Virus record (IMG/VR): IMGVR_UViG_3300008262_000045
Span: 4,710-68,709 of that record
Direction: 5' to 3' (one strand)
Length of the DNA: 64,000 nucleotides
Source: a virus
Every line of letters begins with the position of its first letter. Within the stretch, counting starts at the first letter, position 1. The notes beneath the pieces were generated by a model, which saw only the letters and a program-made list of their open reading frames with translations, had not been told where the DNA came from and made no database searches. The position numbers and the translations under genes were made by a program. Of the stretch, positions 2,386 through 63,857 are shown piece after piece.

Positions 2386-2447
2386 CATTGCGCCAAACTT
2401 TACCATTGATCTTGCCGAAACATTAAACAATAAACAGAACAAAACTT

Positions 2448-4817
2448 ATGGCTACAAAAAATACAAACTGGAGCGAACAACCAAGGATTTACAAAAAGGA
2501 TATGGTACCTCTTCCCGGAGGCGGGTTTGGTAGCTCTACAGAAGCGGCTTACTTAGCCAGTAACATGACAAAAGATAAGGCTTGGGCTGATTTCAAAGCT
2601 GGGCGCATAGGTAGTAAGGAAATGGAACGCATCACCGGATATAAAAGCGGGAGCAGACCAAGTGCCGGCGGCTGGAAACCGCCAACAGAAGGAAGCTCGA
2701 CTCCAACGACAAGGCCACCAAAACCCGGCGACATTAAACTTGGCCCCGGAGGACTCCCGCCCGAGTTTCGCAACCAAGGGAACACTGCTATCCCCGCAGA
2801 CTTTAAGCCAGGGGTCATCATGCCAACCGAAACCGAGCGGCAGGAAATGGAAAACAATCCCAACTTTATCAACGGACTACCGCCCGGAATGAACCCAGCA
2901 GGGACGCCATCCGCCGCTTGGAATGCTCCGCAAAGCCCGCAACAGCCAAACTCGCGGCCTATATCAGGATCAGGAACTGCATTTGTTGACGATAAGGGCA
3001 ACAAGCCTCCAATCAAACCGGGAAGTGGCATTGGCAAACCAGGACCAATGCCTCCTTACATGGGTGGCGATGCCCTATACTTTGACGATAAGGGCAACAA
3101 GCCGAACAGGCCACAGGCTGGGGGTTCTGAATGGCAGAATGGAACGGTTGGGCCGACGAATACGGCGTGGACGGGTTACGGTAATCCTCCTCGCCCGGTA
3201 CCAATGCCTCCTTGGGGTGGTGGCGATAATCCATACACCCCCGAAATTGAGCCGCCTAGAAACAAACCTCCCATGCTGCAGCCTGGCATTGTTGAGGCAG
3301 GTTTTTCGGCGACCAGCGTTACCCCCGAGTTTAACTACACCGATCCTAAAAAGTTTAAGAAAGAAATGCTTAACCTCAAGCAAGACATTCGCGAGGCTCA
3401 AGCAGACGGGGATACAGAAAAATTAAATCGTCTCATTGATAAGCAGAACAAAGCCAACTACACAGTCCAAGGACTAAACGCAGGCTTATCGCAGGAGGAA
3501 GCAGCCCGATACGCAAAGCGCGAAGCGGATATTGATGCAAAGGCTAAGGCGAAAGGCGGCGCTGGCGGACGAATAGAGGAACCGGGGACAGTTGAACGCC
3601 GCCAACAAGATAAGCCTCGCAATCAAGAGGCAAGGCAAAACACACTTGATAGAGCCGAGGCCCAACGCCTTGCTAATGGGACGCCGGAAGAACAGGCCAA
3701 GTATGACAAGTTAAAAAGAGCAGGCCAACTACCAGGGCAAGACGGGAAACCAATCACACCAATCGCTGATCCTGTTGATCGCGGAGGTAAGACTAGAAAG
3801 CCAATCGCTGATCCCGTTGATCGCGGAGGGGGAAGTCAACAACCAACAGCCCAATCAATGTTTCAGGACATTGACGCTAGAAACCGTGCTAATGAACAGG
3901 CGCAACAAGCCGCGCAGTCACGAGAAGCCCAGCGCAACCAAGCCGCGAGAGACGCTGTTGCACAGAAACATGGTTACGCAAATGCTGAAGAAGCTGCAAA
4001 AAACGGTATGCAAATAGGAAACCCCGGCGGAAAACCACCCGGAGGTTCAGGCGGAGGAGGCGGAGGAGGCGGGGGAGGCGGCAGAGGTGGAGGAAAAGGG
4101 AAAGGGAAAGGCGCTCCTCAAGGACGCGAGACAGCTAAAGAACGCAACGCTAGAATGGAAGCAGCGGCCGATAAGCGACGCGACGCCCAATACAAGGCAG
4201 ATCGGCGGCAAGACGCAATTAACGAAGGGTATTCAAGGCTTGACCCTGAAGGTAGCAAAAAATTCTTTGAAAGGGCAAGGGATAAAAAAGAAGCCAACAA
4301 CCAAAAGCAAGGTAACAACCCGAGGCCATCAAGCAAACCCTCAAATTCTAGCGGAAATGTTCATCATTCAAAGGCATCGGGCGGCAAGGGATGGCAAGGA
4401 TACGCGGATGATTGGACTGCTGAAGCAAATAGACTTCGCAAGGCTGGCGATTTAAAGGGAGCGGCAGAGGCAGAAAAAGCGGCCAAGCAATATTCAAGCT
4501 ATAAAGAAGGGGATAACCCATACGCTTCAATCCCAAAGCTATCCGATAAAAACAAACCAAGCTCCCCCGCTAATACTGGAGAAGTGAGTAATGATAACTC
4601 TCTTAATTTGGGAATGCCAGACACATCATCTGTTCCAGATATAACATATACTCCAGGTTCTCCAAATACTACCGGCAACCCGCTATCATCAAACAACACC
4701 GGCTTCAACAATGGCGGCGGCATGGGAGGCGGGCAAGGCGGTGGAGGCGGAGGAGGAAACAGCGGAAGCGGTGGCAGATTTGTAACAATCAATGGCCAAG
4801 TTAGATACTTTGCTTAA
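2448..4817 (+). CDS. Low-complexity G/P/Q-rich putative internal virion protein
   Basis: 789 aa; internal duplications DDKGNKP and PIADPVDRGG; poly-Gly tracts; ends GGRFVTINGQVRYFA. Confidence 0.7.
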   Translation: MATKNTNWSEQPRIYKKDMVPLPGGGFGSSTEAAYLASNMTKDKAWADFKAGRIGSKEMERITGYKSGSRPSAGGWKPPTEGSSTPTTRPPKPGDIKLGPGGLPPEFRNQGNTAIPADFKPGVIMPTETERQEMENNPNFINGLPPGMNPAGTPSAAWNAPQSPQQPNSRPISGSGTAFVDDKGNKPPIKPGSGIGKPGPMPPYMGGDALYFDDKGNKPNRPQAGGSEWQNGTVGPTNTAWTGYGNPPRPVPMPPWGGGDNPYTPEIEPPRNKPPMLQPGIVEAGFSATSVTPEFNYTDPKKFKKEMLNLKQDIREAQADGDTEKLNRLIDKQNKANYTVQGLNAGLSQEEAARYAKREADIDAKAKAKGGAGGRIEEPGTVERRQQDKPRNQEARQNTLDRAEAQRLANGTPEEQAKYDKLKRAGQLPGQDGKPITPIADPVDRGGKTRKPIADPVDRGGGSQQPTAQSMFQDIDARNRANEQAQQAAQSREAQRNQAARDAVAQKHGYANAEEAAKNGMQIGNPGGKPPGGSGGGGGGGGGGGRGGGKGKGKGAPQGRETAKERNARMEAAADKRRDAQYKADRRQDAINEGYSRLDPEGSKKFFERARDKKEANNQKQGNNPRPSSKPSNSSGNVHHSKASGGKGWQGYADDWTAEANRLRKAGDLKGAAEAEKAAKQYSSYKEGDNPYASIPKLSDKNKPSSPANTGEVSNDNSLNLGMPDTSSVPDITYTPGSPNTTGNPLSSNNTGFNNGGGMGGGQGGGGGGGNSGSGGRFVTINGQVRYFA

Positions 4818-4842
4818 CGCTATAAAATAGATAATAAATTTA

Positions 4843-7800: not shown

Positions 7801-10800
7801 TCGCAAGCAGAGCTTGAGATTCAAAGGGCAGCAAGTGATTATGCTACGATGAACGGGCAGTTAAATGAAACTGTACCATTCGGAGGATTTATGTCGGCTG
7901 TTCGCGGGGGGTATGTCGCTCCGCTTACTGAGCAGGGGATCGAGTTATTAACTAACATTGCTGGCGTTGCAACCGGTGGCGCGCTATGGGGCGTCAAAGC
8001 ACTAGGCACAACAGCTAAAGCCAGCTCCGCATTAAACAAGGCCGCAAAAGTTGTCAATGCTTTAGAAGACGGGGCCGGGGTTGTTGGTGATGCTTTCCGA
8101 GGGCTTGGCAAGATTGAAAGACAGCCCGGAGTTAGCCTTACAGACGGGCAAAAGTTATGGAATACCAGCGTTGATCTAACAAAGCAATACACGGTATCTG
8201 GCGGTGGAGAGTTCTTCCAAGAATCTATTGCCGCATTTGGCGAGGCCGGGGCAACCGTTGGCGACGCTCTTAACCAAGGATTTAGCGGGTTGATCGGCGG
8301 CGTTGGAATGTCAGCAGTTCACGGAGGAGTGGGTTATGGGCTGAATACTATTACTAGCGGCATCAAGCAGGCGAAACTTGAACAGGCCCAAACTAAAACG
8401 CTGACAAAATTCGTAGAGGACTACAACAAAACCAATACATCAGGCACTCCGCTAACTCTTGACGAAGCAAGGCAAGCACAAGCCTATCAATCGCCTGCAA
8501 CCGTTTCTATGTTGCAGAATCAGCGTAAGGACTTGATCACTCGGTTAAGTAATGTCAATGCCGAAATCAAATCCCTGCCTCCTACTCCAATAGCACCCAA
8601 AAACCCCACCACCCCAGGTAAAGTGACAACCCCTAAGTTGGCCACTCGCCGGGAGACACTGCTTAACGAAAAGAATCAGATCGAAGGCCAGTTGGCCGCT
8701 AATACGCTCGACACGGTTGTTATTGGCGAAAACAGCTTCACGATTGCGCGGGAGATCAACAAACTGCCAGAGCAACAGCGCGCACTAGTTGATGCAACTA
8801 TTCGCGCCGCTAATGGATCACCGCTAACCGAACAGCAAGAGAACCTTTTAATCAATCATCCTACCAAGTCAGGCAGTCCAGCAGCATACACCTACGGAGA
8901 GACGAGCTTTGACTTTGTGCTGTCTGATGAACTGCGAGCGGAGATCAAGCAAATTGCGCCCGAGACAGCTAAAACCCCAGCGATTCGCAAGACACAAGCT
9001 GAGCGTGATGCCGAGTTGCGGGCCAAGTACGGCGGCGTCTTTAGGTATATCAACGGCAAGCAAATATTTATTGCAGACAAACCGCAGGGACAAGAGGCGG
9101 CAACTCCCCAACCGCAACCTAAGCCTAAACCCAAGGCTCCCCCGCGCTTAAATACTGACAACATGACGCCGCCAGTGCAAAAGCCGTCAGCACCAGCAAC
9201 CTCAATCCCGCAACGGGAAAATCCAGCGGAGCAAGCCCCTACTCCAATCCAAGTCACGCCTACTGTAACAGAGAACTTCCAAACGGAAGACGGGCAAGAA
9301 GCCACCGGCACATTTGAAAAGCAACCCGATGGGAATTGGCAACAGACTAGCCCCGAGGCTCCAACTTTTACCATCACGCCTGCTGACACGCAGTTCTACC
9401 AAACCCTAGAGGATAAAGCGGCTTATGCGTTAAACCCACAGTCACCCGACCCTGTACAGCCCGGCGAATACAAGCAAGCAGGCTATACCGCAATTGAACC
9501 CGCGACAGCATCGACCCCAGCAGATACCGCGATCAATGTCCAACCAGCTCAAGCCGACTCTGTTGAGCCAGCAACGCTTGTTCAGCCAACAGCGACAGAC
9601 CCAGCCCTAACACAACAGCAATCCCGACCCGGAACCCCTGATGCTGTCAATACAAGCAGCCAAGTATTGCCGCCGCCGATACCTGCCGAAGCATACTCGC
9701 CGCAAGTTTTCATGCAGCCTGTAAATCGCGGTTCAGCATTGCTTATGCTTCAAACTGCCGCGCCGTGGGTATCCTCTGCTCCGATTGTTGTTCGCTCTCC
9801 GCGATTCTTTATCAATAGCGCCGGCAACAAGGTTATTGACGCCGAACAACACGCAAGCCTGCCAGCTAATGAGAAGGCTGATTACAGCCCGAACCAAGGC
9901 GCTATGTTTGCGTTGGATGGTAAAATCTATGTGGATGAAGCCGCGCTAGTCGATTACATCAATGCCACGGCTCCCGAGTTGAGGCAGGACAAGCTCAAGG
10001 CCGCATTGCGCGAAGAAGTTATTCATGTCGCCACTATGAATGTGCGTGACAGCAAACAGATTTCCGAGGATTGGAATATGTTGCCTGACGAGGCTAAACG
10101 CCGCGTCATTGAAACATACTTCACATCCGACTTGGAACGAGCCGGAGGCGATTGGACACAAGTCGAAGTCCCCGCCTTTAATGCAGGAGCGGAGTTCTGG
10201 CGCATGTACCTGAACGCCGTTACAGAGGGCCGCACCACAGAGCAAGTTGATTTGCTCACAGAGGTAGCCGAATACGCAAAGACAAACCCCAGCTTTGCCG
10301 CCAGGATCAAACAGGCACTAGAAGACATTGCGCGTTGGTTGCGCGAGGAACTTCTAAGCAATCTTGACCCTGACGCCCGCGTTCAGTTCGAGCAAGCCGC
10401 ACAGAAAATCGAAGCGGAGGTTGCAAGACTTGAGCAGGAGTTCGGCATGACCAACGCAACTGCGACGCCGGAAGCCGAAGCTGCTTCCCCGATGGCATCG
10501 CCTGTGGTAGAAGCCAATGCGCCTCCGGCTCTCCCTGCCGAGACAATCAGCACAGAGCCTGTCACTCTACCTGAAAAGCCGAAGCCAAAGAATCAGGCGT
10601 ATGTGCCTAAACCTGCCATTGGATCATCCGCATGGAAGCAAGAGGCTGTCTACACCTCATTAACTGGCGGGGCCGCAGCGTTTGGCTACAAGATAGTTGA
10701 TACTGGCATCGCTAGCCCGTTTGAAGCCTACGGCAATACGCTAAATTGGGGTACACAGCTTTACGACAAGCTCAACCCTGGCAGTGAGATCGGGCAATGG

Positions 10801-13800
10801 ATCGACGCCATGAACGCAGGCACAAACCCAGCGGGCAACGCTATTATCCAAGCGGCCAGCGAGCCGGGCTTGCATCGCGTGTGGTATGGACATGATTTCG
10901 CGACAAACTTAGACAATGTGGTTGCCGAGTTTGGCTGGACAGCGGTTCCTGAATTTATCGGCCAGCTATTGAAAGACAGCCTTACCAAGAGCGGCATCCC
11001 CTTCCCCGGCGTGGAGCTTTTGGTTCAGTCCGGCGCTGTCAGTGATCGTACTGCAACTGATTGGCTCTCCACTAACATTGGCGAGGTATTCGGAGGCGGA
11101 CTAGCGTTCCTTGGGACATACAAGCTCTACAAAGCAGCCAAGGGCGGCAAGTTGTCTAAACCCCAGGTTCTTTTTGCCACCGTAGGCATTGGACTAAAGA
11201 TGGTTTCGGGCGTGATGACCGCGCAACCATTCTTGGTACTCTCGGGGCTTGCCGATACCGCGATCCTTGTAACGAATCTGGATCAAGTTAAGTCTGCTTT
11301 CCAAAAGGGCATCAAGGAGTTCAACAAGAAGCCCAAGGCTGTTCGCGACCTTTACGAGCAAGTTGCTCCGCCGGCATCTTCCCCTACTCAACAAACTTTA
11401 CCGCAGGATGGACAAGAAGTTAAGTCGCTAGGCTCATATCCTGGAAACGCGGGTGCAAATCCCGCTCCTGCTACCAATCAAGGCATTGAGGCCACGCCTC
11501 CGCCGCTCCCGCCAGAAACATTCGAGGCTTTACCACCGCCATTGCCGCCTGAAAGCCGCACCGAAGCCACCCCTCCCCCGCTCCCAAGTCAAGAGGGTGA
11601 AGTTGCCGCACCGGCAGAACCAAAGATAAAGATGAAGCAGGCGGCAGATCGCCTTGGGATTACACCAAAGGAACTGCTTGTGCTGGCGCGAGGCGGGACA
11701 ATCCCAGCGCAAAAAGACGGGAGCAATTATCTATTCAGCCCAAGCGACCTAACTGCTTACGCAGATAAATTGGCGGCAAAGACAAGCGACATTGCTACGA
11801 AACTGCAAGCCACGGACGCCAATACAGCGACGAGCAAAGATATTGATTCGCTTAAGAATCAGGGCTATGTCGAGATGCGGCGTGGTCAGCCGGTTATCAC
11901 GGTCAAGGGGTATGATCTACTTGCTAAGCAGGGAGTACAGCCAAGCATGACCCGCAAGGAGCGCATCGAGCAAATCGAGGCGGAGTTTAATACGCAGCAA
12001 TCCGAGAAAGCGCCCGAGATCGAGTTGCATCCACGGGTTAACAAGCAAGGGAGGTACTATATTGTTCCTGGGCCAAACGGATCGTTGGCCGCGACGATTA
12101 GTGACGCAGATGATGCCAAAGCGAGAGAGAAGGCTAATCAAGTTGCGCTGGAGTTTGAGGCGAGAGAAAAAGCCATCAATGATGAGCTTGCAGCGGAGCG
12201 GGCCAATCAACAGCAGCCGGAATCTCAAGACGAGTCTACTGATGCAAGTCTTGTCCCCCAATTCAAGAAGGCATTGATGCAGAAGATGAAAACCATCTCT
12301 GACTTGCGAGATCAAGAGAAGTTGACACCAGAAAGCAATAAGACGCTTATCAAGCAAGTTGCCGAGGTTGCCAACAAGTTAGGGATGCAAGAAACGCACC
12401 CCGGATCATTGCTGTTGAATTTCAGTACGGCTCCAGGGTTGCTGATGAAACGACAAGCCGACTTGATTACAGCGGTTCACGGAATGATGGAAGGGCAGTC
12501 TATCTCGGTTCAGCCTGTAGAACTAAATGCCAAGGGAGGCAAGGGAAGTCCTACCGAGCTAACCGGCCTAGAGAACAGGACGCTTTCATGGGGTGAAATG
12601 ATTTTGTTGGGCGCAATGGAAGCCAAGCCTATGCCAGATGGTTCCCTTGAACTGACTCTTGGCCAATCAGCCGTACAGATTAAAGAGCGGTTAACTCAAG
12701 AGGAAGCCGAGGCCGCTGAGCAGGAGTATTACGATGAATTAAAGGCTGAGCTTAACATTATCTCGGCTGGACAAGACGCAAGCCCAACAGGCCGAGAGTT
12801 GTTGGATGCTATTGAGGAAGCCGGCGGACTTCCGTCACCCAACAGCGAAACAGAGCAAGAGTTTACCGGCGAACTAAAGACGCTATGGGAAAGCGCAGGG
12901 GCTATGGGCAAAGGGGCTTACGCTGGCAAGGGAGTATTCAGAAACAATATATTCCGACTGAATGCGCCGCCACTGGATAAACTGGCAGCACATCTCCGTG
13001 GCCACGGGTTCTCTGTTTGGGGAGCAAACGACATTTTTGAACTGGTAGATGCAAGGTTTCGTTCAAACAAGCCCATGTACGGGACTTCATGGCAGGATGA
13101 TGGCGGCTATCGTGCGGTTGCCAGCAAGACGCCACGCAAGGTTGTTTCTTGGGATATCCCAACGAGGAACACAAACACAGAGTATATCCTCAATGGCCTG
13201 ATTGCTGGCCGCGGCCAACCCGTAGGGATGTTTATTCCAAACTTCGATGCTGATGGCAACTTGATGGCCGATACCCTGCCAGCGGAGGGAGATATTGAGT
13301 TCAGGCACTTGGATGCACCGCTTGGAAGTGAGAACGAGTATCTGACCAAGGATCAAATGCGTGAGTTGATGGAGATTCGCGCAACAGACACAAGGTTCTG
13401 GAATCGCAACTCATTCGAGATTCGTGAAATCAGGTATGCCGATTCTGATAAGGCGTTTAAGAAGACAGACAGACTCCAGATGCCCGAGCGCCAAGTTACG
13501 CTTTCAAACGCCGTGGTTTCAGAGAAGCCCGGCCCTGTATTCATCAAGAAAGCCTACCACGGCACACCGCACAAGGTAGATCGGTTCAGCACATCCAAGG
13601 TTGGCACAGGCGAAGGAGCGCAAGCCTTTGGATGGGGCTTGTACTTTGCCGAGGCATGGAAAGTCGCGCAGTCCTATCAAGACAGGTTGTCGGATTACTC
13701 ATCCCCTGGACGCTACACATGGCAGGGCAGCACATACGAGTCAGACAACTACAAGTCGCCAGAGCGTCATGCCGTGTCATTGGCTTATCACCAAGGGTTG

Positions 13801-22800: not shown

Positions 22801-25800
22801 CAAAATTACGGGGTTGGATTTGATGTTGGCTTGCTTTCAAAAAACGCAATAGATTTGCTTGCTGACAGGATTCTTTTCCTAGACGCACAGGTTTTTATTG
22901 ATTCAGGGGCTTTCAGCCATTTTGTCAAAAATGAAAAACTAAAAGCCGAGGGTAAAAAAACATTAGCGCCTTTGGACTTCGATAAGATTTTCAAAAAGTA
23001 CGACGCGATTACGGAAGCCATCTACGAGCAAAACAAAGTAGAAGCAGACTATCCTCGCCCGCTCATGGTTATGCCTGACATTATTGGCGACCAAAAGGCA
23101 TCACTATTACTTACTGAACAATACAAAAATCGCATTGCGATTGAGACAGCGGTAAATACATTTACCCCAATCATTCCTATACCGCTTGGCGAATTATCTC
23201 TTTCACAGGCATATAGTAAAATTATTGAGATACTAAAGACTAATGCGTCAGGAATAGAAATTGATCCTGCCAAGTTCATTGTTGGTATTCCGTCTAACGC
23301 GCAAGCCGTGAGCAGGGAGCAACTCGCTGAGTTTTTGCGTGAATCCAAACCACCCCGCATTCATTTCCTTGGCGCGGCAGCAGACATCAATATTAACCCG
23401 TTGCTCGCGGTTGTCGCTAGAACCGCCCCGGATACGATTGTTACGGCGGATGCCAGCAAGGTAAGGTCTGAAATCCTTAATGGAGTGGCGGCTGGAAAGA
23501 CGCGCCAGCAGGCAATTATCGACGCATTAAATCAAGAAGATGATCCAATAAATGTTTTGGAGAATTTCAGCCAAGTAGCTCCGCTCTTTGCCAAAGCCCG
23601 CAAGCTCCGTCCTGATTGGCCGGGAATGCTAAATCAAGCAAACGACATCAGCATTCAAGAGTTTGCAGAATTGGCAAAAGATGGACGCTTGATCCAAGCC
23701 ACCGGCAAGCCAAACGAATTTGAGGCTGGTTCAGGCAAAACGCCGCTGAGCGTTGGCGCAGCCTCTGGATATTCGCTGAATGACATCGCGCATTTCTACA
23801 TTGCCCGCCAGTTGCCGACAAAATTCAAAGACAGCACCGATGCGTCACGCCTTGTAAATCAACTTGTCGCCACTAATAAAGACCCCGCGCAAAGCAATAC
23901 TGTTTTGCGGGCGTTCGATAGATTTGCCGAAGATGCCGCAAGCGAAGCGCAGGCCGTGCCGCTTTCAGCCAAGCCCCGCCCATCTTCTCTCCTTGCTGAT
24001 ACAAAAGGCAAGGTGATAGCAGGCACGGCTGTAGGCACTCGCAATCCAACTGGCAAGACCGCGCTGGAGGCTGGCACGGATCGTTCTGCTCTGGTCGATC
24101 TCGCCTCGATGCGGCGCGATCCAGAACTTTTCCGAAAAAACGCCGTGCTACTCGCCGACTTCCCGCTAGTGGCAGGCCAAGTGCCAGAGGCCGCGAAGCT
24201 CGTTCGCGACATAAGCGCCCCGCTTAAGCAGGCCCGCGAGCAGTTCGCTGATGCCAGCAAGCGACTAGAGGATGCCCGCAACGAACTCAAAGCCGAACTC
24301 GCCCGCCGCCAAGGTGTGCGCCCGAACAAGATCAAGGTGACCGAGGTGGACAAGCTGGAGAGCGGCGAGTCCAAAGTGAAGCGAACAGATGCGGTGGTGA
24401 AAGCCGCCCTGCAAAAGATCAAGGACGCCCGAAAAATCCAAGCCACCTTCGGCGACAAGCGCGACAAGAGTCAGGCCGAATTTGAGGCAAACTCTAAAGC
24501 TCTGCTTGCCGGGGATCAGTTCTCAATGGAACTCGCCGAGCGTGTTTACGATGCGCTCAAGACCTCCGCAAAGCGCAACCTAGAGCTTCTTATCGAGCTA
24601 TTCCCTGAAGACCTCCGCGACACCGCACGGCTCTGGTATGACGGCGCGAACATCATCGCGCAAGACTTCGCCGCCCGCTACAACACCACGCTCAACCGCT
24701 CCGCCGCTGTATTGGCCGTCTTCTCCCCGCAGAAGGATTGGTTTATGAATGTCGCCCTCGGCCAGCGCATGATGAACATCTGGGCCAACCACCAGGACAC
24801 GCGCTTCGATGATGCGATGGCAAAGCAATACCTCATGCGAGCCGGTGAGCCGGAGCCGCAGTGGGACAAAAAATCCGATGACTACAAGCGCGACGCCAAA
24901 GGCGAACTCGTCTACACCAAAGGCGCGAAGCCGATCCGCGACGAGGAAGGTAACATCACCGGTTGGGAAAATTGGGACAACGAAAAGGCGCAGGAGAAAT
25001 TTAATGAAGCCAAAATGGAACTTGCCATAATGCGCGGCAAAAAACTTTCTGAGCTTCCCTTCGATCTCCAAGCCCGATTCATTCGTATGTGGAGCGAGGT
25101 TTACGACGCCCCAGGCTTCCCGGTGGTTACGCCTGCCGGAACATTCGGCAACAATAAACTCTCCGAAAAAGGCAATGAACAACGCCTCGCTTGGGGTAGC
25201 TACAACACCATTGAAAAAGCGATTCGTATTCTCACCGCGCCTGAATCCTCCGAGATGCAAGTGATCTCCAACGAACTTGGCGTCCAGCACAAGGTTCGCA
25301 GCTTTTACAATAATATCGCAGACCCCGCGAATGCGGATGGTCATGTCACGATGGACACCCATGCCATCGCCGCAATCCTCTGGCAGGCACTCTCTGGCAA
25401 CAGCCCTGAGGTGAGCATGAACTTTGGAAGCGGCGGAGCCTCGGGCAACAGCAACCTCGGCATCTCTGGACTTTACCCGGCTTTTGCTGAAGCCTACCGC
25501 GAAGTAGCGGCAGAATTTGGTTTGCTTCCTCGCGAAGTTCAGAGTATTACTTGGGAAAGTGTTCGCCTGCTTTTCCCAGCGAAATTCAAGAGCCAAAAAG
25601 CCAATGTCACCAAGGTTCGCGAAGTCTGGAATCAACACGAACAAGGAATCATCACCACAGAACAAGCCCATGACCGCATCTACCAAATTGTCGATGAATG
25701 GAAACGCCGAGGCACTCTTGCGGGACAACCCGGAAGAACTGCGGCAGATGCAATTGCAGATGGTTCAGGAGTGGGCAGACCAGACTGGGCAACAATTACC

Positions 25801-29322: not shown

Positions 29323-29337
29323 ACAAAATCACACACG

Positions 29338-40968: not shown

Positions 40969-41036
40969 CATTTTGCGTTTTCTGTATCTGCCGAAACGAT
41001 TGACAAATAAGCAGGAAGCATATTAAATCCGACTCG

Positions 41037-42232: not shown

Positions 42233-42253
42233 ATTGCCGAGACAATCGGCAAT
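42233..42253 (+). promoter_or_regulatory. Perfect copy of the genome-wide 17-bp motif, upstream of the capsid gene
   Basis: ATTGCCGA-GACAA-TCGGCAAT; nine related copies elsewhere (see findings). Confidence 0.75.
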
Positions 42254-43770: not shown

Positions 43771-43804
43771 AGGTGGGGCGGGTAAAACCGCTCCACCTAT
43801 TTTT
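43771..43804 (+). terminator. Rho-independent terminator after the capsid gene
   Basis: AGGTGGGGCGG-gtaaaa-CCGCTCCACCT followed by ATTTTT. Confidence 0.8.
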
Positions 43805-50503: not shown

Positions 50504-50559
50504 CAACATTTTTTCAAGAAAATGAAAATATTTTTATGGCCCGCAGAGCCGCTTAAAAC

Positions 50560-50928
50560 CTAGCTCGGCGAGGGGCCGGAGTTTTTTTTTGCTCTTTTTG
50601 GCTGATAAGATTTACCCGTTTCACCATGCACTAAATTTTTAGCCACATCCCGAGCGGCCCGACGCATAGCGAGGGCAATTTCTAAAATTTCATCCTCGGA
50701 AAAGCCGAGCTTGGAATTAAAATAAACCCGCCCGTCGGCGATCAAATATGATTTGGTCGCGCCGACCCGATAAACCGGCCCGTCCTGCTGCCTAACCCTG
50801 GAGAGGCGTTGCTTCGCTTTTTCAACCAGCTTGGCGCGGTTCTCTAAATACCACTGGCGTTTTCGGGCTTTGTCGTACTCTGCATTTTTGGCTCTCCACT
50901 CGCGGTTATATTCAGGGTTTGTTTTCAT
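50560..50928 (-). CDS. Hypothetical basic protein coupled to the integrase
   Basis: ATGA overlap with the integrase stop; YNREWRAKN-type N-terminal helix. Confidence 0.6.
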   Translation of the reverse strand: MKTNPEYNREWRAKNAEYDKARKRQWYLENRAKLVEKAKQRLSRVRQQDGPVYRVGATKSYLIADGRVYFNSKLGFSEDEILEIALAMRRAARDVAKNLVHGETGKSYQPKRAKKNSGPSPS

Positions 50929-51905
50929 AGATTCCAATACTTGATTGCTTCTGATTGCGGCACTGCCCGCGCATAGGTTTTATTGACCATTTGGGGCGAC
51001 GAATGCCCGAGGAAAAACGCGGTTTTGCCGGCGTCCTGCCACATCGCTAGGTGCATTGATGCCGCCGTGTGACGGAGGCAGTTTTTTGGCCAAGCCTTCC
51101 ATCCCATGTGTTCGCACAGATTCGCTCGCATTCTTTTAATGTGCCATTCATCCAAGCAGTCCCATTGCTCCGGCAGGTAGCGCAACAAGGCCGGCTGAAT
51201 CGGCACATAGCGTGGTCGAGGAATTGCCTCTGTGGATTTGGTAATCGGCACAAAAATCTCCTGCTCGCGCAAATGTTCGCGCAATGCTCGCCCGACCTCG
51301 CTTTGTCTCATGCCAGCAAATAATCCGAGCGCAAGCCACGCTCGAAGCCTGGAAGATGATTCGCTAAAAGCCAAAAGTTTTTCCACCTCTGCGCAAGTTA
51401 GTAGATGATGCCGGCCAGATTTAACGGGAACATCCGCTAGTAATACCGGCGACTTTTCAACATGGCCGTATCGGACAAGCCAATTAAAAACCATTCGGAG
51501 GTAAACATAGCCTTGGCCTTGCGTTGTTCCGCTCCAACCGCCCTTTCCTAAAAAGGCGTCGATGTTGCGAGGGCCGATGCCGCGAACCGGCGAGGAGCCG
51601 TACATCGCGACAAATTTTTCATTCCACCACCGTGATAGCCGAAGATGGTTTCCGCGCATTTTGGGATGCCTCGAATTATTAAAATCTTTGAATGCGTCTG
51701 AAACAGACTCGCCTTGGACGCTGAATGAATCTGTCCCGCGAGTTTCGAGTTGTTCTAGCACGGAGATTTTTGCGGCTTGCGCTTCCTCCCATGTTTCAAA
51801 AAACAGCCTCTTGATATTTGACTCAATTCTGTATCGCAGACGGAAAACTTTTTTCCCGCGCAGGTTGAATTTAGTCACCGAGACAGATGTTTTTTTAGTC
51901 TTCAT
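50925..51905 (-). CDS. int: Tyrosine recombinase (integrase)
   Basis: GLFAGMRQSE (R), TKS (K), NCLRHT, LGHSS, KTYA (Y). Confidence 0.92.
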   Translation of the reverse strand: MKTKKTSVSVTKFNLRGKKVFRLRYRIESNIKRLFFETWEEAQAAKISVLEQLETRGTDSFSVQGESVSDAFKDFNNSRHPKMRGNHLRLSRWWNEKFVAMYGSSPVRGIGPRNIDAFLGKGGWSGTTQGQGYVYLRMVFNWLVRYGHVEKSPVLLADVPVKSGRHHLLTCAEVEKLLAFSESSSRLRAWLALGLFAGMRQSEVGRALREHLREQEIFVPITKSTEAIPRPRYVPIQPALLRYLPEQWDCLDEWHIKRMRANLCEHMGWKAWPKNCLRHTAASMHLAMWQDAGKTAFFLGHSSPQMVNKTYARAVPQSEAIKYWNL

Positions 51906-51911
51906 TTTTTG

Positions 51912-52147
51912 TTGCCACCGTTGCCACGGATTGCGTTTTTTTTGAAATCAAACGCGATCATTTGTTTCGTTTTAGCACATCCTCGAAATGCCCTCCGAGC
52001 CTCTTAGAATCTAGGGTTTCGGCCATATTGCATTGATCTTTAAGGGGAGCCGATGGCGGGACTCGAACCCGCGACCTACCGATTACGAATCGAAATTCGG
52101 CCTTTGATTATCATAGTTTTGCGTTGCTGTTGCCACCCTGCTGCCAC
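51912..52147 (+). promoter_or_regulatory. Integrase arm-type sites (paired TGCCAC repeats) flanking the att core
   Basis: TTGCCAC at 51912 and 51921; TTGCCAC at 52130 and CTGCCAC at 52141. Confidence 0.65.
52046..52092 (-). other. attP: attP core: 3' half of tRNA-Thr(CGT)
   Basis: Minus strand CGA-TTCGTAA-TCG gtaggtc GCGGG-TTCGAGT-CCCGC CATCGGC TCC; no D-arm or 5' acceptor strand; 140 bp from the integrase start. Confidence 0.88.
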
Positions 52148-52169
52148 GAATCTTCAGAAGTCAGGTCAA

Positions 52170-52463
52170 TTATTTCGCATTTCCAGCCCGGCGGGTAGTC
52201 TTGATCCGAGCTATTGACGATCCACCAGCGTAGCTCTCGGACGGCAGTACAACATTTCCAGCACTGCCCTTGGCTGGGTGGTTTCCCTGGTTTTGCACTG
52301 CCTCATGCTCCATTAGGAGCGCAATGGCTTTATGAACCATTTTACTGCGATCCGTCGGGCAATACAGGTTTGAGGGGTCATTATTATGATCCGCGACGCA
52401 CTGGTCTATGTAGGTAAGCAAATCCATGCGTAAGGAAATGCTGACCTTGTTGTGTGTTTTCAT
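52170..52463 (-). CDS. Ribbon-helix-helix regulator (candidate repressor)
   Basis: KVSISLRMDLLTYID...DRSKMVHKAI. Confidence 0.65.
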   Translation of the reverse strand: MKTHNKVSISLRMDLLTYIDQCVADHNNDPSNLYCPTDRSKMVHKAIALLMEHEAVQNQGNHPAKGSAGNVVLPSESYAGGSSIARIKTTRRAGNAK

Positions 52464-52730
52464 CAGTCGCACCAGTAACACCAATGCTCCCTGCCGCAAC
52501 TATTTTTTTTAAACCGTGTGAAAATTTAGAAATTGCGTCATGGCCCGCCGAGCCTTTTCTGATCAGCGTTTCCAAATGGTTTAATTTTCTCTTGACACGC
52601 ATTGAAAAATAGAGGGCGTCCGCAGAGCCTTTATTTATGCGGTAGAAAATAAATTTCGGCCTGCCGCGCCTTTATTTATGCGCCTGTCAAATAAAAAAGA
52701 GTAGGTAATTCCCCCACCTTGCAAAAAAAT

Positions 52731-52764
52731 AATTGCTACCGGTAAGACCGAATTGCTACTGGTA
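52731..52764 (+). promoter_or_regulatory. Tandem operator-like repeats AATTGCTAC(C/T)GGTA
   Basis: Copies at 52731-52744 and 52751-52764, overlapping a TTGCAA...TAAGAC promoter-like element. Confidence 0.6.
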
Positions 52765-52769
52765 TTTCC

Positions 52770-52955
52770 ATGCCAAACAACCCGTGCATTAAATTTTCGA
52801 TCAGCCTCCCAATCGAAGCCCACAAATACATCAAACAAAAATCCGAGGCTCAATTTAACCGGCCCATTTCCCAACTCATCACGGAAGCGATTGAGTCGAT
52901 GCGGAAACTCGAAATCAAAAAAGCCAAGACGGAAAAAGCGAAGGCTGCGAAATGA
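52770..52955 (+). CDS. Arc-like ribbon-helix-helix protein
   Basis: IKFSISLPIEAHKYI...RPISQLITEAI. Confidence 0.7.
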   Translation: MPNNPCIKFSISLPIEAHKYIKQKSEAQFNRPISQLITEAIESMRKLEIKKAKTEKAKAAK

Positions 52956-53134
52956 AAACCCCAAACCAAATCGCCAAACTTTTCAGCGTAACCCCCACCG
53001 TAGTCCGCAAGCTCGCCCGCCTTGAGAAGATTCCAGCCTACCGCGTCGGCGGCGTGTGGCGCTTTGACGAAAAAACGGTTCGGGCAATTTTCGCCAACAA
53101 ACCCCAAGCGGCCTTCAACAAGGTTAAAATCTAA
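52952..53134 (+). CDS. Excisionase-like HTH_17 protein
   Basis: TPNQIAKLFSVTPTVVRKLARLEKIPAYRVGGVWRF. Confidence 0.8.
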   Translation: MKTPNQIAKLFSVTPTVVRKLARLEKIPAYRVGGVWRFDEKTVRAIFANKPQAAFNKVKI

Positions 53135-53235: not shown

Positions 53236-53417
53236 ATCCCGAAGAAGCCATCCTACTCGCCTCCCTCGCTTTCGGCTCCATGTGGGCTTGCTGGCACATT
53301 GGCTACCAAGCCGGCCAAAAAAGCGTTTTGAGGGAATTTGAATCTTATTGTGACCGGCGCGACGCCGGCTTGCAAAAACCCCGCCGAGACAATCGGCAAA
53401 CAAAACCCAAAAAATAA
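53232..53417 (+). CDS. Small single-TM protein
   Basis: MNPEEAILLASLAFGSMWACWHIGYQAG. Confidence 0.6.
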   Translation: MNPEEAILLASLAFGSMWACWHIGYQAGQKSVLREFESYCDRRDAGLQKPRRDNRQTKPKK

Positions 53418-53443
53418 ACCCCGCTGGGGACAACCAGCGGGGT
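53418..53443. terminator. 10-bp GC-rich hairpin (terminator-like on the minus strand)
   Basis: ACCCCGCTGG-ggacaa-CCAGCGGGGT with an A-tract on its left. Confidence 0.5.
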
Positions 53444-53463
53444 CAACGAAGGAACCAAACGAA

Positions 53464-55352: not shown

Positions 55353-55353
55353 T

Positions 55354-56657: not shown

Positions 56658-56671
56658 AAAACTTATATAAC

Positions 56672-56959: not shown

Positions 56960-56964
56960 ATTAC

Positions 56965-57141: not shown

Positions 57142-57142
57142 T

Positions 57143-57340: not shown

Positions 57341-57350
57341 AGGAGGGAAA

Positions 57351-58778: not shown

Positions 58779-58783
58779 AATAT

Positions 58784-59503: not shown

Positions 59504-60210
59504 ACAATCTAATAATGCAACCCTGCGCCACCCTAGATTGCGAAAATCTCGTCCCAATGCCGGGATCGGACTTTGCACGGTTTTTCCCAACAATGAAAAT
59601 CCTGTGCGAGGCTTGCGATATCGAGCGCATTGAGGAATTAAAGCGTAAACAGGCCGAAGAAGAGCAAGAACGCCGCCAAGAAGCGTTTTTTAGCCTCTGT
59701 CCACCCATTTACCGCGAAAGCGACCTAAATCGCATTCCAGCGGCATTTCTGCGCGAATGCAGGACTTGGAAGGTTTCGCCACAAGGGCTGGCGTTTGTCG
59801 GGAAGGCTGGCAGCGGAAAAACCCGAGCCTCATGGCTACTCTTAAAGCGTTTGCATTTTAGCGGGGTTGGAGTTTATGGACTGACAGCAACGCAATACGC
59901 AAAAGCCTGTGCTGACCAATGGCAGGATAACGCGCAACTCAAGGCAACATCCGATGAAGTTTTAGAAAAATGCCGAAAAGTAAGGGTTTTGCTTATTGAT
60001 GATTTGGGGAAAAATAAATTCACCGAGAGGGCCGAATTGGAATTTTTTGACTTACTGGAACACCGCACTAGCCACGAAATGCCGGTCATTTGGACTGCAA
60101 ACGCAGAGGGAACAACTTTTTTGAAAATGCTCTCGTCGGATCGCGGCGAGCCGATCCTCCGGCGGTTATCGGAGTTTACAAAAATCATTAACACAGAACA
60201 TGACAGATAA
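59485..60210 (+). CDS. DnaC/IstB-like ATPase (helicase loader)
   Basis: Cys-containing N-terminus, Walker A GKAGSGKT, Walker B LLIDDLG, WTAN, RRL. Confidence 0.88.
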   Translation: MGMENLNNLIMQPCATLDCENLVPMPGSDFARFFPTMKILCEACDIERIEELKRKQAEEEQERRQEAFFSLCPPIYRESDLNRIPAAFLRECRTWKVSPQGLAFVGKAGSGKTRASWLLLKRLHFSGVGVYGLTATQYAKACADQWQDNAQLKATSDEVLEKCRKVRVLLIDDLGKNKFTERAELEFFDLLEHRTSHEMPVIWTANAEGTTFLKMLSSDRGEPILRRLSEFTKIINTEHDR

Positions 60211-60604
60211 ACTTATAAATGAAATAATTGATGTTACAAAAGCTCCTACCGGGAACATCATAGACAGAAGAGGATACAAGGCAGGAGATTTAATAGTAAT
60301 TGGTTTTGCGGATATAAAACCAAGAACACGACTAAAAAATGATAAAGATCCTCATTGGGTTGGTAAGGTCACTCCATGCAAAACTATAAAAACTGATAAT
60401 GAAAATTATTGGTGGGTTGATAGGAATGGAGAAATTTTGAGGTGGGGGTGGAAGGCAGTTAAGAAATATGAAAGATTTTTCAAATTATTAAAAATAGCAG
60501 GCATTAAAAATACAAACCCGAAAGGATGGACTGATGAAGAAGGTGAAAGATATCGCGCTGCTAAATTAGAGTATCAAAATTGTGCCGGCACGATTGACAA
60601 ATAA
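60200..60604 (+). CDS. AT-rich hypothetical protein (moron-like)
   Basis: 134 aa; visibly more AT-rich than its neighbours. Confidence 0.6.
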   Translation: MTDKLINEIIDVTKAPTGNIIDRRGYKAGDLIVIGFADIKPRTRLKNDKDPHWVGKVTPCKTIKTDNENYWWVDRNGEILRWGWKAVKKYERFFKLLKIAGIKNTNPKGWTDEEGERYRAAKLEYQNCAGTIDK

Positions 60605-60665
60605 CAAAACTCTATGATACCTCGGACTAATTTCCCTAGATAAACCAACAACCAACCACCTAAAA

Positions 60666-60950: not shown

Positions 60951-60971
60951 TCTGCCGAGACATTTGACACA

Positions 60972-61253
60972 ATGAGAAATTTACCATCCGACACCCTGGA
61001 GGAATTTGCCGAGGACTATCCCGCCGACAATCCCGCCGTCACCGCGGATTACATGATTGGCAAGTGCGAAAACCTGCAACTTGGCTGGAGCTTGGATCAT
61101 ACCGGCGGTCTGATCGAGGCTCGAATCTGGAACTGGCCCTCTGTGGTTGGCAGATACCGCCCGCACCAAGTGGAGCCGCTGGCAAAAATGCTCTGGATGG
61201 CCCTGCAAGATGGAAACCAACACTTAAAAAACGGAACCACCGCTTATGCTTAA
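60972..61253 (+). CDS. Hypothetical protein
   Basis: 93-aa ORF. Confidence 0.5.
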   Translation: MRNLPSDTLEEFAEDYPADNPAVTADYMIGKCENLQLGWSLDHTGGLIEARIWNWPSVVGRYRPHQVEPLAKMLWMALQDGNQHLKNGTTAYA

Positions 61254-61701: not shown

Positions 61702-61767
61702 TAATACATATTTTACTTAAACGCGCGATTTAAGGTCAAACACAAAATTTAAAGCAAAATCCGCAAA

Positions 61768-62259
61768 ATGTCAGACACCGAAAAAACCGAGCCAGCAGAA
61801 ATAAAACGAGGACCTGGCCGACCCTCGAAATACTCCCAAGAACTGGTCGAGGAAATTATCACTCTGCTTTCTGAGGGCAATACCATGAAGTCGATTTGCG
61901 CCCTTCCCCATATGCCGGACATCACCACGATTTTCAAATGGGAACGAGAAAATGGGGAATTTTCCCAACTCTCCGCGCGCGCCCGTGAGGCCGGAACCCA
62001 TGTGATCGCCGACCAATGCATTGAAATTGCCGACGATCCGATCCTCGACCCCGCTGACAAACGAGTGCGAATCGACACAAGAATGCGCCTAATAGGAAAA
62101 TGGAACGCCAAGAAGTATGGCGACAAGATTGAGCATACGGTTCAGCAAGAATTTATCCCGCTGGACGAATTACGCCGCAGAATCGCGGAAAGCGAGTCCC
62201 GGCAGCAAATCCACATCGAGGAAAACAAATTATTACCGGCAACAAAGGAGGAAAAATGA
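61768..62259 (+). CDS. terS: Terminase small subunit (Sf6 gp1-like)
   Basis: GRPSKYSQELVEEI...G.TMKSIC..PHMP...TIFKW...IAD...RIDTR...KKYGDK. Confidence 0.85.
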   Translation: MSDTEKTEPAEIKRGPGRPSKYSQELVEEIITLLSEGNTMKSICALPHMPDITTIFKWERENGEFSQLSARAREAGTHVIADQCIEIADDPILDPADKRVRIDTRMRLIGKWNAKKYGDKIEHTVQQEFIPLDELRRRIAESESRQQIHIEENKLLPATKEEK

Positions 62260-62531
62260 AAGACGCCTACAAGAAGAAAGGCTTTACCGAATACAATAAG
62301 CCAAAAAAAACCCCGAACCATCCCACAAAAAGCCATGCGGTAGTCGCGAAAGAAGGCCCGCTCGAAAAACTGATCCGCTTTGGACAGCAAGGCGTGACGG
62401 GAAGCCCTAAAAAGAAAGGCGAGAGCGCCGAATATCGCGCCCGCCGAGAATCTTTCAAAGCAAGACACGCCAAAAACATCGCGAAAGGCAAGATGAGCGC
62501 GGCTTGGTGGGCCGATAAGAAAAAATGGTGA
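62256..62531 (+). CDS. Conserved small basic phage protein
   Basis: KLIRFGQQG...RRESFKARH...SAAWWA. Confidence 0.75.
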   Translation: MKDAYKKKGFTEYNKPKKTPNHPTKSHAVVAKEGPLEKLIRFGQQGVTGSPKKKGESAEYRARRESFKARHAKNIAKGKMSAAWWADKKKW

Positions 62532-62532
62532 T

Positions 62533-62754
62533 ATGAATTGCCGGTTTTGCGGATTTGAAATGTGGACTGACGATAAATACGGCTGTCCGAACTGCTACGG
62601 GGAGGGATTGGACGGCGAATATCTCCCGCGACAACGGAAAAAATCGAAAAAGCCGGCGCAAAGCGCCCACGAACCCCCCCGTGTTACCCCCGAACGACCA
62701 TCCGGCGAGGATCGGAGTCCGAGGCAGAGCCTCGGGAGGAGAAACAAACTATGA
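62533..62754 (+). CDS. Small zinc-finger protein
   Basis: CRFC...CPNC. Confidence 0.5.
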   Translation: MNCRFCGFEMWTDDKYGCPNCYGEGLDGEYLPRQRKKSKKPAQSAHEPPRVTPERPSGEDRSPRQSLGRRNKL

Positions 62755-63038
62755 AAAAACGCACAGACGGCCCAAAAAAACTGATCATGGCAATTTTGGG
62801 CGCACCAAAACCCAATGGACTCCCGCGAGGGAGGGTAAAAACCAAACGCGAAGCCCAAGTAATCCGATTGATCGCCCTCGGGGATACTAACCAGAAGATT
62901 GCCGACCGCTTGGGGATCAGCATTAAGACGGTGGAGAAGCACCGGGAGAACGCCATGAGGAAATTTTCACTCCGAAATACCGCCGACATCACCCGCTTTG
63001 CGGTTGCGTCGAAAATCATTGAAGTGAAGCCGCTTTAA
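62751..63038 (+). CDS. Stand-alone LuxR/GerE-type HTH regulator
   Basis: TKREAQVIRLIALGDTNQKIADRLGISIKTVEKHRENAMRK. Confidence 0.88.
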   Translation: MKKRTDGPKKLIMAILGAPKPNGLPRGRVKTKREAQVIRLIALGDTNQKIADRLGISIKTVEKHRENAMRKFSLRNTADITRFAVASKIIEVKPL

Positions 63039-63045
63039 TCCTGCT

Positions 63046-63288
63046 ATGCCCAAAAAAAATCCCGACAAGAAACCCAAAATTAAAACAGAATTGCAACGGA
63101 ATCCCGCTCTTTACCGCGTGAAGCTGTCCTGTGAAATGTCAAGGAAATGTCTTGGGGGAGAAATCAACCCGCCGAGCGGATTAAGCCGGCAGGAGTGGGT
63201 TTTATACAATATGTGCCACGCCTTGGAGGACATCGCCACGGCCATGATGAATCAATTTTCGCCAGCCGAGACGATTAGCAATACATAG
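63046..63288 (+). CDS. Hypothetical protein
   Basis: 80-aa ORF. Confidence 0.5.
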   Translation: MPKKNPDKKPKIKTELQRNPALYRVKLSCEMSRKCLGGEINPPSGLSRQEWVLYNMCHALEDIATAMMNQFSPAETISNT

Positions 63289-63318
63289 TATAGATAACTT
63301 CCAAGAGGCTTTACCTCA

Positions 63319-63795
63319 ATGAGCAGTAAAACCTACTCACAATTCACTAGCGATTTAGAATCAAGTCGCGACGCCGTTTTTGCTGTTGCTAAACATATAC
63401 AAGGCGCCGGGCGCGATGTCATCTTGCCCTTCCACAGGGTAACGCCTAACGAAAATGAGCGATATGCTTTTCAAGACGAATGCGATATTAAGGTAGCGGT
63501 TCCGCATCAAGTAAAGCAAAGCAGCAGGGACTTTGGGTCAGTCAATGAATTTGGCTTCCGCATGATAACCGTGGACGAAAGATACAAAATTGAAAAACAG
63601 AAAGCGTCACCGCCCTTTGCATACTGGATAGTTAACAAATCTAAAACTGGCGCAATTTTTATTCCTTGGAGCACTAAAGCTAGTTGGGATGTTTTTACCG
63701 CACAAGATAACCTGCAAGGCGGGCGCGAATGTGAGTTTTTAAGATGCCCGTCTGATCTTTGTCGCTTTATCACCTTTACTGAATCGCGTTTATGA
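63319..63795 (+). CDS. Hypothetical protein, degenerate PD-(D/E)XK-like
   Basis: DECDI...HQVK spacing resembles D-x(n)-ExK nucleases. Confidence 0.45.
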   Translation: MSSKTYSQFTSDLESSRDAVFAVAKHIQGAGRDVILPFHRVTPNENERYAFQDECDIKVAVPHQVKQSSRDFGSVNEFGFRMITVDERYKIEKQKASPPFAYWIVNKSKTGAIFIPWSTKASWDVFTAQDNLQGGRECEFLRCPSDLCRFITFTESRL

Positions 63796-63857
63796 ATACT
63801 GCCGAGACGATTGACAAAAATTATCCCCACAGCCAGCCAAAACGAGCTTCTACAACT

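Follow-up and report, generated by a model that had tools for sequence, protein, structure and literature searches.

In phage P1, according to the excerpted text of PMC8546580, the immunity repressor binds dispersed sites that control lytic genes and include the repressor's own promoter. The stoperators of cluster A phages, in the part of PMC9283540 drawn on here, are fully asymmetric 13-bp sites present in more than 20 copies, and the monomeric two-domain repressor also binds the early promoter. Start-associated sequences (SAS) are described in the excerpt of PMC3203893 as containing a Shine–Dalgarno core, lying 3–7 bp from the ATG and preceding non-structural genes only, and the promoter–early stem-loop elements (PeSLs) treated in the excerpt of PMC4122927 are composites of a terminator and a host-type early promoter in hyperplastic regions. 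Here, we describe a 17-bp motif, with the clade consensus TGCCGA-rACrw-TnGrCA, that recurs in a stretch of 64,000 nucleotides (the window), namely bases 4710–68709 of the 68,709-bp virus contig IMGVR_UViG_3300008262_000045 (G000); positions below are those of the window unless the contig is named. The phage is temperate and tailed, and belongs to an uncultivated freshwater lineage. Most likely, the motif is a DNA signal through which the phage runs its own transcription, heading its lytic units.

The motif is a real repeat, and its strong copies run in the direction of the genes. An earlier note, made from the letters alone, had listed ten copies; all are present with the letters it quoted, and the list proved incomplete, since 25134 (a good copy), 2078 (a weak one) and two copies upstream of the window were not on it. 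With up to two mismatches allowed, the note's pattern matches 16 times in the window against a mean of 0.71 (maximum 3) in 100 shuffled sequences; 13 matches lie on the plus strand and three on the minus strand, each of the latter with two mismatches. A looser pattern with at most one mismatch gives 12 matches, 11 plus and one minus, where 0.26 are expected. A position weight matrix (PWM) was made from the pattern matches and both strands were rescanned at a threshold of 17 bits, in G000 and in its complete relatives G001 and G002. The gene strand has 14 (G000), 20 (G002) and 18 (G001) sites and the opposite strand none in any of the three, that is, 52 strong copies against 0. The PWM scores are not independent, because the matrix derives from the same sites, whereas the strand asymmetry is. 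The exact loose pattern likewise occurs 13 times forward and never in reverse in G002 (68 kb), and 15 times in reverse and never forward in G001 (71 kb); a backwards-pattern control gave 0 everywhere. The lack of minus-strand sites at or above 17 bits bears out the note's view that the site is oriented with transcription.

Copies are positioned with respect to the start codon downstream of them. Among the 12 stronger copies in G000, 10 lie 1–66 nt before a start codon or head an intergenic region, and two are inside a giant open reading frame (ORF) of 8159 amino acids (aa; 4843–29322) with the polyvalent-protein domains RadC, LPD5, LPD1, ART-PolyVal, C5 methylase and DUF7178. Across G000–G002, the distance from motif end to ATG ranges from 0 to 73 nt, with about ten genes beginning 0–8 nt past the motif; the ATG of a zinc-ribbon gene of G001 abuts the motif and is also the point at which homology with the G002 gene sets in. 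Several copies hold the stop codon of the upstream gene (TAG, TAA or TGA) within motif positions 12–15. Copies head the RecT operon, a 93-aa gene, the large terminase region, two ejection-protein-like genes, and the portal, scaffold and capsid genes. The leftward lysogeny module, the switch region and the first early operon, with its Arc-like and excisionase-like genes, are free of copies: nothing at or above 10 bits lies in the switch region (52500–52770), and the first copy, at 53382, is ~600 nt into the early operon. As the earlier note had stated, nine of its ten copies are intergenic (2413, 40989, 42235, 60953 and 63800) or overlap a gene end (29309, 53382, 60583 and 63264), the tenth (10536) lying within an ORF, and the right arm is TTGACA in four.

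The motif is conserved in related phages, and genes have been gained or lost exactly beside it, the latter being something that the note had proposed to look for there. The copy ahead of the capsid gene is kept in 8 of the 11 loci that a capsid-protein search of IMG/VR returned (L001–L002 and L004–L009), 18–30 nt before the ATG; it shows no mismatch to the note's pattern in L001, L002, L004 and L008, has a variant centre in L005, L006, L007 and L009, and was not found in L003, L010 and L011. The intergenic letters around it have diverged while the motif has been kept. More broadly, the 17-mer is constant although G+C content differs by ~10 points between G000 (49%) and G001/G002 (58–60%), whose core proteins are 75–88% identical. 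When the whole of IMG/VR was scanned for the exact motif, only G001 and G002 showed multiple copies; 31 other contigs have one each, which by a rough estimate is about chance level. In a sister clade (G003, G004 and L128; capsid ~71–74% identical where measured) the motif takes the shifted form TGYCRAAAGRATTGRCA, with ~13 copies in G003 and four in G004, all but one on the gene strand and again preceding portal, scaffold and capsid genes. No convincing copy was seen in the more distant G005 (capsid 35% identical). Copies within ORFs sit in Pro/Ala-rich linkers of the giant protein at positions that are not homologous between the two clades; the in-ORF copy of G003 aligns with the place of a tRNA gene in G000, and each copy bears its own clade's variant.

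At the level of single bases, the left arm is invariant and the right arm is mostly TTGACA, in some copies TCGGCA; where an upstream stop codon falls inside, the right arm is TAGACA, TAAACA or TTGACA (for TAG, TAA and TGA, respectively). Tabulation of 40 sites, with eight positions fixed by the search pattern, showed a pyrimidine at −1 in 36 of 40, TTGA at −7 to −4 in about half, and enrichment of A at the two positions past the motif (25/40 and 23/40). Dyad symmetry is partial (T1/A17, G2/C16, C4/G14 and A6/T12), and the ancestral site was probably the palindrome TGTCAA-N5-TTGACA. The invariant A8 and the near-invariant T12 are as far apart as the two bases that matter most in a −10 element, a resemblance only.

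The individual copies that follow are all on the plus strand. The perfect palindrome CGCCGAGACAATCGGCA (53382–53398) is the first of the early region; it overlaps the end of a small ORF and stands 65 nt 5′ of the RecT ATG (53464), and G001 and G002 have copies at the same place. A strong, conserved G+C-rich hairpin (53417–53444, assigned to neither strand) follows 18–45 nt past this copy, with counterparts in G001 and G002 in which letters have changed and pairing is kept. An A-run precedes it on the plus strand and a T-run trails it on the minus strand, while no T-run follows on the gene strand, so that it would act as a terminator for leftward transcription only. Further along, TGCCGGCACGATTGACA (60583–60599) overlaps the end of ORF 60200–60604, 66 nt 5′ of ORF 60666, and TGCCGAGACATTTGACA (60953–60969) stands 2 nt 5′ of the ATG (60972) of the 93-aa gene, a conserved gene that precedes the small terminase gene and whose homologues in G001 and G002 have the motif 4 nt ahead of the ATG. 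The copy AGCCGAGACGATTAGCA (63264–63280) overlaps the end of ORF 63046–63288, 38 nt 5′ of ORF 63319, and TGCCGAGACGATTGACA (63800–63816) is intergenic, 5 nt past ORF 63319–63795 and next to a 29-bp tandem array; the label of a single-stranded-DNA-binding-like gene that the earlier note gave to 63319–63795 found no match in Pfam or PHROGs. The 4.7 kb of contig before the window holds two copies, among them TGCCGGAACAATAGACA, 1 nt before the large-terminase ATG, whose TAG is the stop of the preceding 60-aa gene. Within the window these are followed by the weak copy AGCCTAGACGATTGACA (2078–2094, contig 6787; two mismatches, PWM 17.5 bits), which lies within ORF 1855–2385 and may be non-functional, and by TGCCGAAACATTAAACA (2413–2429, 24.0 bits), intergenic and 18 nt 5′ of the ATG (2448) of a 789-aa low-complexity protein.

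Inside the giant ORF, TGCCGAGACAATCAGCA (10536–10552) encodes PAETIS in a Pro-rich linker, and the giant ORFs of G001 and G002 have motif copies in the corresponding stretch; TGCCGGAACATTCGGCA (25134–25150, 22.4 bits) is in the DUF7178 region. The giant ORF ends within TGCCGAAACAATAGACA (29309–29325), whose TAG is its stop codon, 12 nt 5′ of the portal ATG (29338), an arrangement matched in G001 and G002 and, with the variant motif, in G003 and L128. The copy TGCCGAAACGATTGACA (40989–41005) is intergenic, 31 nt 5′ of a 378-aa gene (41037) for a probable scaffold protein, and motif copies precede the homologous scaffold-like gene in L001, L002 and L004. Another perfect palindrome, TGCCGAGACAATCGGCA (42235–42251), is found 18 nt 5′ of the major capsid ATG (42270). 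The capsid unit is closed by a strong intrinsic terminator (43771–43798, plus strand; an 11-pair stem with eight G–C pairs, then ATTTTTCT), the only strong plus-strand terminator found in G000.

Within the general role of a transcription signal, the motif is quite possibly a phage-specific promoter core at which short-leader or leaderless mRNAs would start. Host RNA polymerase would be directed to the motif by a factor conserved among these phages, RNA would start no more than a few bases from the last A of the motif, at about positions 17–20, and the leaders of these mRNAs, if present at all, would be very short and lack a Shine–Dalgarno sequence. The proposed start derives from the genes that lie 0–2 nt past the motif, which, if expressed from it, would require a start at about positions 17–20 and would yield leaderless mRNAs. 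This reading is suggested by the co-orientation of the copies with the genes, by their placement even where they overlap the end of the upstream gene, by their position at the heads of modules, by their absence from the lysogeny and immediate-early parts, by their conservation across phages with differing immunity regions, and by the clade-specific drift of the central bases, as promoter specificities drift. The capsid gene unit, with the motif at its head and a strong terminator at its end, was counted on the same side.

Several observations weigh against a promoter. There is no standard −35/−10 architecture; early and late genes are preceded by the same motif, with no temporal distinction; the giant gene, and in relatives the DnaB gene, contain strong copies; and a partly symmetric site points to a protein that binds DNA as a dimer more than to a polymerase. 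Pfam and PHROGs (ORFs and giant protein) and PDB and Atlas look-ups (parts of the giant protein) turned up neither a phage RNA polymerase nor a sigma factor in G000–G002, and six-frame searches of the same genomes with sigma hidden Markov models (HMMs) gave no Sigma70_r2 or TIGR02937 match apart from the helix–turn–helix of a LuxR protein (18.3 bits); a six-frame search with PF00940 (T7-type polymerase) had a silent control and was hence uninformative. Finally, contigs from RNA libraries span the capsid copy. Four metatranscriptome assemblies have contigs over the capsid and scaffold genes (depth 2.4–5.7), with left ends at 42233 (2 nt before the motif), 42248 and 41007, and another contig crosses the capsid copy from 42098 (137 nt upstream), so that RNA, or contaminating DNA, spanning the motif exists; these data are assembled contigs, which cannot show transcript starts.

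TTGACA was rejected as a −35 box, as no −10 element follows at 16–18 bp and genes begin 0–8 nt past the motif; sigma-54-like, extracytoplasmic-function-like and Bacteroidetes-type (−33/−7) promoters, compared by eye with their consensus sequences, misfit in spacing or key bases or would start inside genes. No second conserved block at −35/−10 spacing lies on either side of the motif, there is no information 16–18 bp downstream of TTGACA or upstream of positions 7–12, and a scan for −35/−10 consensus pairs found 19 where 22.4 were expected. The AGGAG (Shine–Dalgarno) core is absent from the motif consensus, and a consistent hairpin upstream of the copies was not found, few sites having one.

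The earlier note had proposed operator or activator sites of a phage regulator, and the class, a DNA signal read by a protein, stands; the LuxR and ribbon–helix–helix (RHH) proteins that it named are not conserved in the relatives that share the motif. The LuxR/GerE protein (62751–63038) has no homologue in G001–G005, two of which share the identical motif. ORFs 52170–53134 of the immunity region, which encode RHH and excisionase-like proteins, have no tblastn match in the motif-sharing G001 and G002, a search that strongly diverged homologues of such short proteins could escape. The motif is thus independent of both the LuxR gene and the immunity region, and an identical motif beside undetectable immunity homologues points to conserved machinery, rather than an immunity repressor, as its reader.

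Among the proteins conserved in G000–G002, one is recognisable as a candidate reader, by fold family alone: an NrdR-type zinc ribbon of 75–85 aa (PF22811, without the ATP-cone; 28.8–40.7 bits, cut-off 27.2). Its gene stands between those of the two terminase subunits, small and large, in G000 (contig 1545–1772, L061:1545-1772, outside the window), G001 and G002, and it is absent from G003–G005. Other proteins conserved in the same three genomes could also serve, namely a 101-aa double zinc ribbon, the 60-aa protein before the terminase copy, and proteins of 93, 151 and 80 aa encoded at 60972, 61246 and 63046, as well as the 122-aa protein described below. One of 19 other phages that encode NrdR-type zinc ribbons has the motif, and it is a close relative (L113). 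Around the zinc-ribbon gene of L115–L125 a different element occurs in several copies on both strands, in which TTGAC leads into three direct repeats of 9 nt (CACAGAGGA-like). The minus strand beside the integrase (50560–50928) encodes a basic protein of 122 aa that is 52–68% identical to its counterparts in G001–G003 and in 19 metagenome proteins; the AlphaFold model of this protein (mean predicted local distance difference test score 74.6) has long helices, a three-strand sheet and a helix. As a known type of DNA binder it was rejected, with no family match and no Foldseek match at E ≤ 0.001, the VIA-align rows covering the long helix only.

The sister clade differs in one respect that bears on the reader. 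Its giant ORFs (5885 aa in G003, 5833 aa in G004) contain a complete sigma-70-family domain (Sigma70_r2 at 59.7, 56.5 and 39.3 bits; full-length TIGR02937 matches at 74.2 and 51.2 bits), located at G003:C1:35515-35724 and G004:C1:23721-24221 (both minus strand), with loci L052:15125-15754 and L055:3616-4227. Polyvalent proteins do not usually carry a sigma factor as cargo. The domain belongs to the variable cargo region and directly precedes the conserved 1,000 aa at the C terminus, at a place taken by DUF7178 modules in G000; because G000–G002 carry other modules in this region, its link to the motif is only a lead. A polymerase or sigma factor hidden in the giant protein of the present phage was sought and not found with Pfam, PHROGs, PDB phmmer, two Atlas look-ups and an HMM built from the sister-clade sigma domain. 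A more specific and rather doubtful scenario is a takeover without a phage polymerase, in which a factor brought in or made early would re-aim host RNA polymerase at the 17-mer and yield mRNAs of almost all lytic genes with no leader or hardly any; the sister clade's factor would be injected sigma cargo, replaced here by a non-homologous reader such as the NrdR-type zinc ribbon. The giant polyvalent protein is presumably delivered by the virion.

Apart from a promoter core, the motif might be a set of dispersed operators or roadblocks, at which a repressor made in the lysogen silences lytic genes by occluding promoters or by stopping elongation in one direction; we regard this as possible, if on balance unlikely. 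The phage is temperate, with an integrase, an excisionase-like gene, Arc-like RHH genes and, read by eye, a 3′ tRNA fragment next to the integrase, and the 122-aa basic protein encoded on the opposite strand beside the integrase is conserved in G000–G003. Repressors and their operators normally change together, whereas here the immunity genes have no detectable homologue in the phages that share the motif. A site of 17 bp with partial dyad symmetry, perfectly palindromic at 53382 and 42235, would suit a repressor, as would the presence of the same site ahead of early and late genes and within a 24-kb gene. Precedents are P1, for which the excerpt of PMC8546580 gives 22 dispersed asymmetric 17-bp operators, and L5, whose sites are co-oriented with transcription as these are (PMC9283540, in part). 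Yet the switch region has repeats of its own and no copy, the first copy coming only ~600 nt into the early operon; the copies follow the downstream start codon (0–8 nt in ~10 cases) rather than any intergenic gap; and no repressor was paired with the site, the protein of 122 aa showing no recognisable DNA-binding family or fold match. An altogether different strand-specific DNA signal, for site-specific nicks, control of packaging or ejection, or replication priming, is hardly probable: single-strand interruptions at consensus sites occur in T5-like and phiKMV-like phages, and the copies here are spread genome-wide on one strand, but such a signal gives no reason for placement 0–73 nt from an ATG or for absence from the leftward lysogeny module.

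A role at the RNA level, as a hairpin or linear site 5′ of cistrons for a boxB-like antiterminator, a translational regulator or a processing nuclease, appears improbable. Strand-specific copies just ahead of start codons would be expected of it, and in perfect copies a stem of 6 bp would close a GACAA loop, which the earlier note likened to the P22 boxB loop. Most sister-clade copies are able to pair: all six pairs form in 10 of 17, the folding energy is −3 kcal/mol or lower in 13 of 17, and positions 3/15 co-vary (T–A in 11 copies, C–G in three, C–A in three). The 53382 copy, moreover, is followed by a conserved hairpin and is the sole one in a nut-like setting. In G000–G002, however, all six pairs are possible in just 7 of 51 copies, 33 of 51 fold no better than −1 kcal/mol, positions 3/15 are unpaired in 34 (32 of them as a C–A mismatch), and the left arm never compensates; the most frequent and top-scoring form, TGCCGAGACAATTGACA, is a poor hairpin. 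With so few pairable copies, a hairpin is not required in this phage, and the motif is independent of one. The boxB-like hairpin of the earlier note therefore fails for this phage, the left arm being fixed and the right-arm consensus being TTGACA, not TCGGCA. The distance to the ATG (0–73 nt) is also variable for an RNA role, and no Rfam family matches the motif copies.

The earlier note had further suggested crossover sites that bracket single-gene cassettes. As observations these have substance: between G002 and G001, 5 of 92 breakpoints in each genome fall at most 20 nt from a motif centre, against 1.16 and 0.95 expected; homology blocks end at the motif end (5985/33993 and 11022/38479) or begin at the motif (3616/29817); a 501-aa gene is present or absent exactly between motif and terminase gene; and the 94-aa ORF between the 60583 and 60953 copies is present in some genomes only. 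PeSLs in T4-type phages offer a precedent (PMC4122927, in part). As its purpose, a mere boundary sequence shared for cassette swaps and devoid of any regulatory role is very improbable. Between G000 and G002 there is no excess (0/56 and 1/56 endpoints near a motif against 0.40 and 0.71 expected), and with 2/62 and 2/62 between G000 and G001 the excess is weaker or absent for pairs that include G000; capsid, portal and scaffold copies are kept where no exchange is seen; and neither orientation, nor placement by start codons, nor the clade-wide change of central bases is needed for exchange, PeSLs being themselves regulatory in the same excerpt. Cassette exchange at the motif is probably a by-product of a shared regulatory word, as many genes share the same 17 bases.

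The remainder of the genome is that of a temperate phage. The integrase (50925–51905) is encoded on the minus strand, and an Arc-like RHH gene and an excisionase-like gene lie at 52770–53134; Pfam and PHROGs also assign RecT, an exonuclease and a DnaC-like loader among the early genes, and the small and large terminases, portal, probable scaffold, major capsid and tail genes for packaging and structure. Nearly all genes are on the plus strand, few with a Shine–Dalgarno sequence and most with A-rich leaders. In the switch region (52620–52770), which lacks the 17-mer, two pairs of direct repeats (gcctttatttatgcg and aattgctacYggta, each twice) are likely operators of the RHH proteins. Between the integrase and the leftward RHH gene, ~52053–52100 (minus strand) reads by eye, confirmed by no tool, as the 3′ portion of a tRNA-Thr(CGU) that spans anticodon stem to discriminator base; this putative fragment is probably the attachment site.

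A tRNA-Met(CAT) gene (11402–11476, plus strand; Rfam 52.4 bits, also called by ARAGORN) lies inside the giant ORF and ends in CCA; it keeps the frame open and is translated as PQDGQEVKSLGSYPGNAGANPAPAT within a Pro-rich linker. The giant ORFs of G001 and G002 hold the same tRNA, and nucleotide homology blocks stop at its 3′ end; if it were matured, the giant mRNA would be cut. Directly 3′ of the 63800 motif copy and 5′ of a MazG-like gene, a perfect 29-bp tandem array (CCCCACACATTTGAGGGGTTTTCTAAATC; 63858–63962, 3.6 copies in the window) runs across the contig junction, and an unrelated 69-bp array is found at the G003 contig ends; the 29-bp array may be an origin or packaging region. The contig ends overlap by 114 bp, which makes the assembly probably circular. 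The capsid protein has no match among 50,697 phage records, and a large-collection search with the terminase gave at best 29% identity (partial matches) and ~25% over most of the length. Two prophage scans of representative bacterial genomes gave none in the first and only a marginal Cupriavidus match in the second. Judged by these sequence searches, the lineage has no cultivated relative, and the phage collection no close one.

The motif offers a ready map of transcription units in a lineage with polyvalent proteins of 5,800–8,200 aa, and a 17-bp bait for the factor that runs its lytic programme. Should the motif prove to be a promoter that needs neither a phage polymerase nor a recognisable sigma factor, host transcription would be redirected in a new way; if it is a set of roadblocks or operators, it would extend genome-wide silencing of the P1 or L5 kind to an unrelated phage group. 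The coincidence of breakpoints and motif shows, besides, a shared regulatory word driving cassette shuffling.

Compared with T7-type and T4 gp55 promoters, the motif is alike in its ~10–20 near-identical contiguous sites of ~17 bp per genome, in their co-orientation with the genes directly before which they stand, often in the end of the upstream gene, and in the drift of specificity between related phages. T7-type promoters call for a conserved block of about 17–23 bp that ends at the transcription start; the motif is a contiguous block of 17 bp, with a start only predicted near its end. Unlike in T7, the last four bases are not A+T-rich, and no phage polymerase or sigma factor was found. Sites of the boxB/nut type are few, lie between an early promoter and terminators and fold into a short, stable RNA hairpin with a GNRA-like pentaloop, whereas the motif occurs at 12–20 sites per genome, including sites before structural genes. 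With the C1 operators of P1, as excerpted from PMC8546580, it shares a 17-bp site in ~20 copies across a temperate genome, and it differs in that the switch region lacks it and the immunity genes vary among the phages that share it. With the L5 stoperators (PMC9283540, in the excerpt) it has in common many copies, short intergenic spaces, an orientation tied to transcription and a temperate phage without a polymerase of its own; the motif is 17 bp and partly symmetric, and neither a stoperator-type repressor nor an early-promoter copy was found here. SAS and extended SAS (ESAS) elements of cluster K, as far as the excerpt of PMC3203893 extends, also have one orientation, lie directly 5′ of start codons, sometimes contain the upstream stop codon and differ in consensus between subclusters as the motif does between clades; the motif differs in having no Shine–Dalgarno core, in lying 0–73 nt from the ATG and in preceding structural genes too. 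Like the PeSLs of the PMC4122927 excerpt it is a repeated regulatory motif at gene boundaries with cassette exchange, although it is a single 17-mer, stands before core genes as well, and has neither a consistent upstream hairpin nor a −35/−10 pair. By analogy, then, the motif, a member of none of these classes by its defining features, is most like phage-directed consensus promoters or the dispersed operators of P1 and L5.

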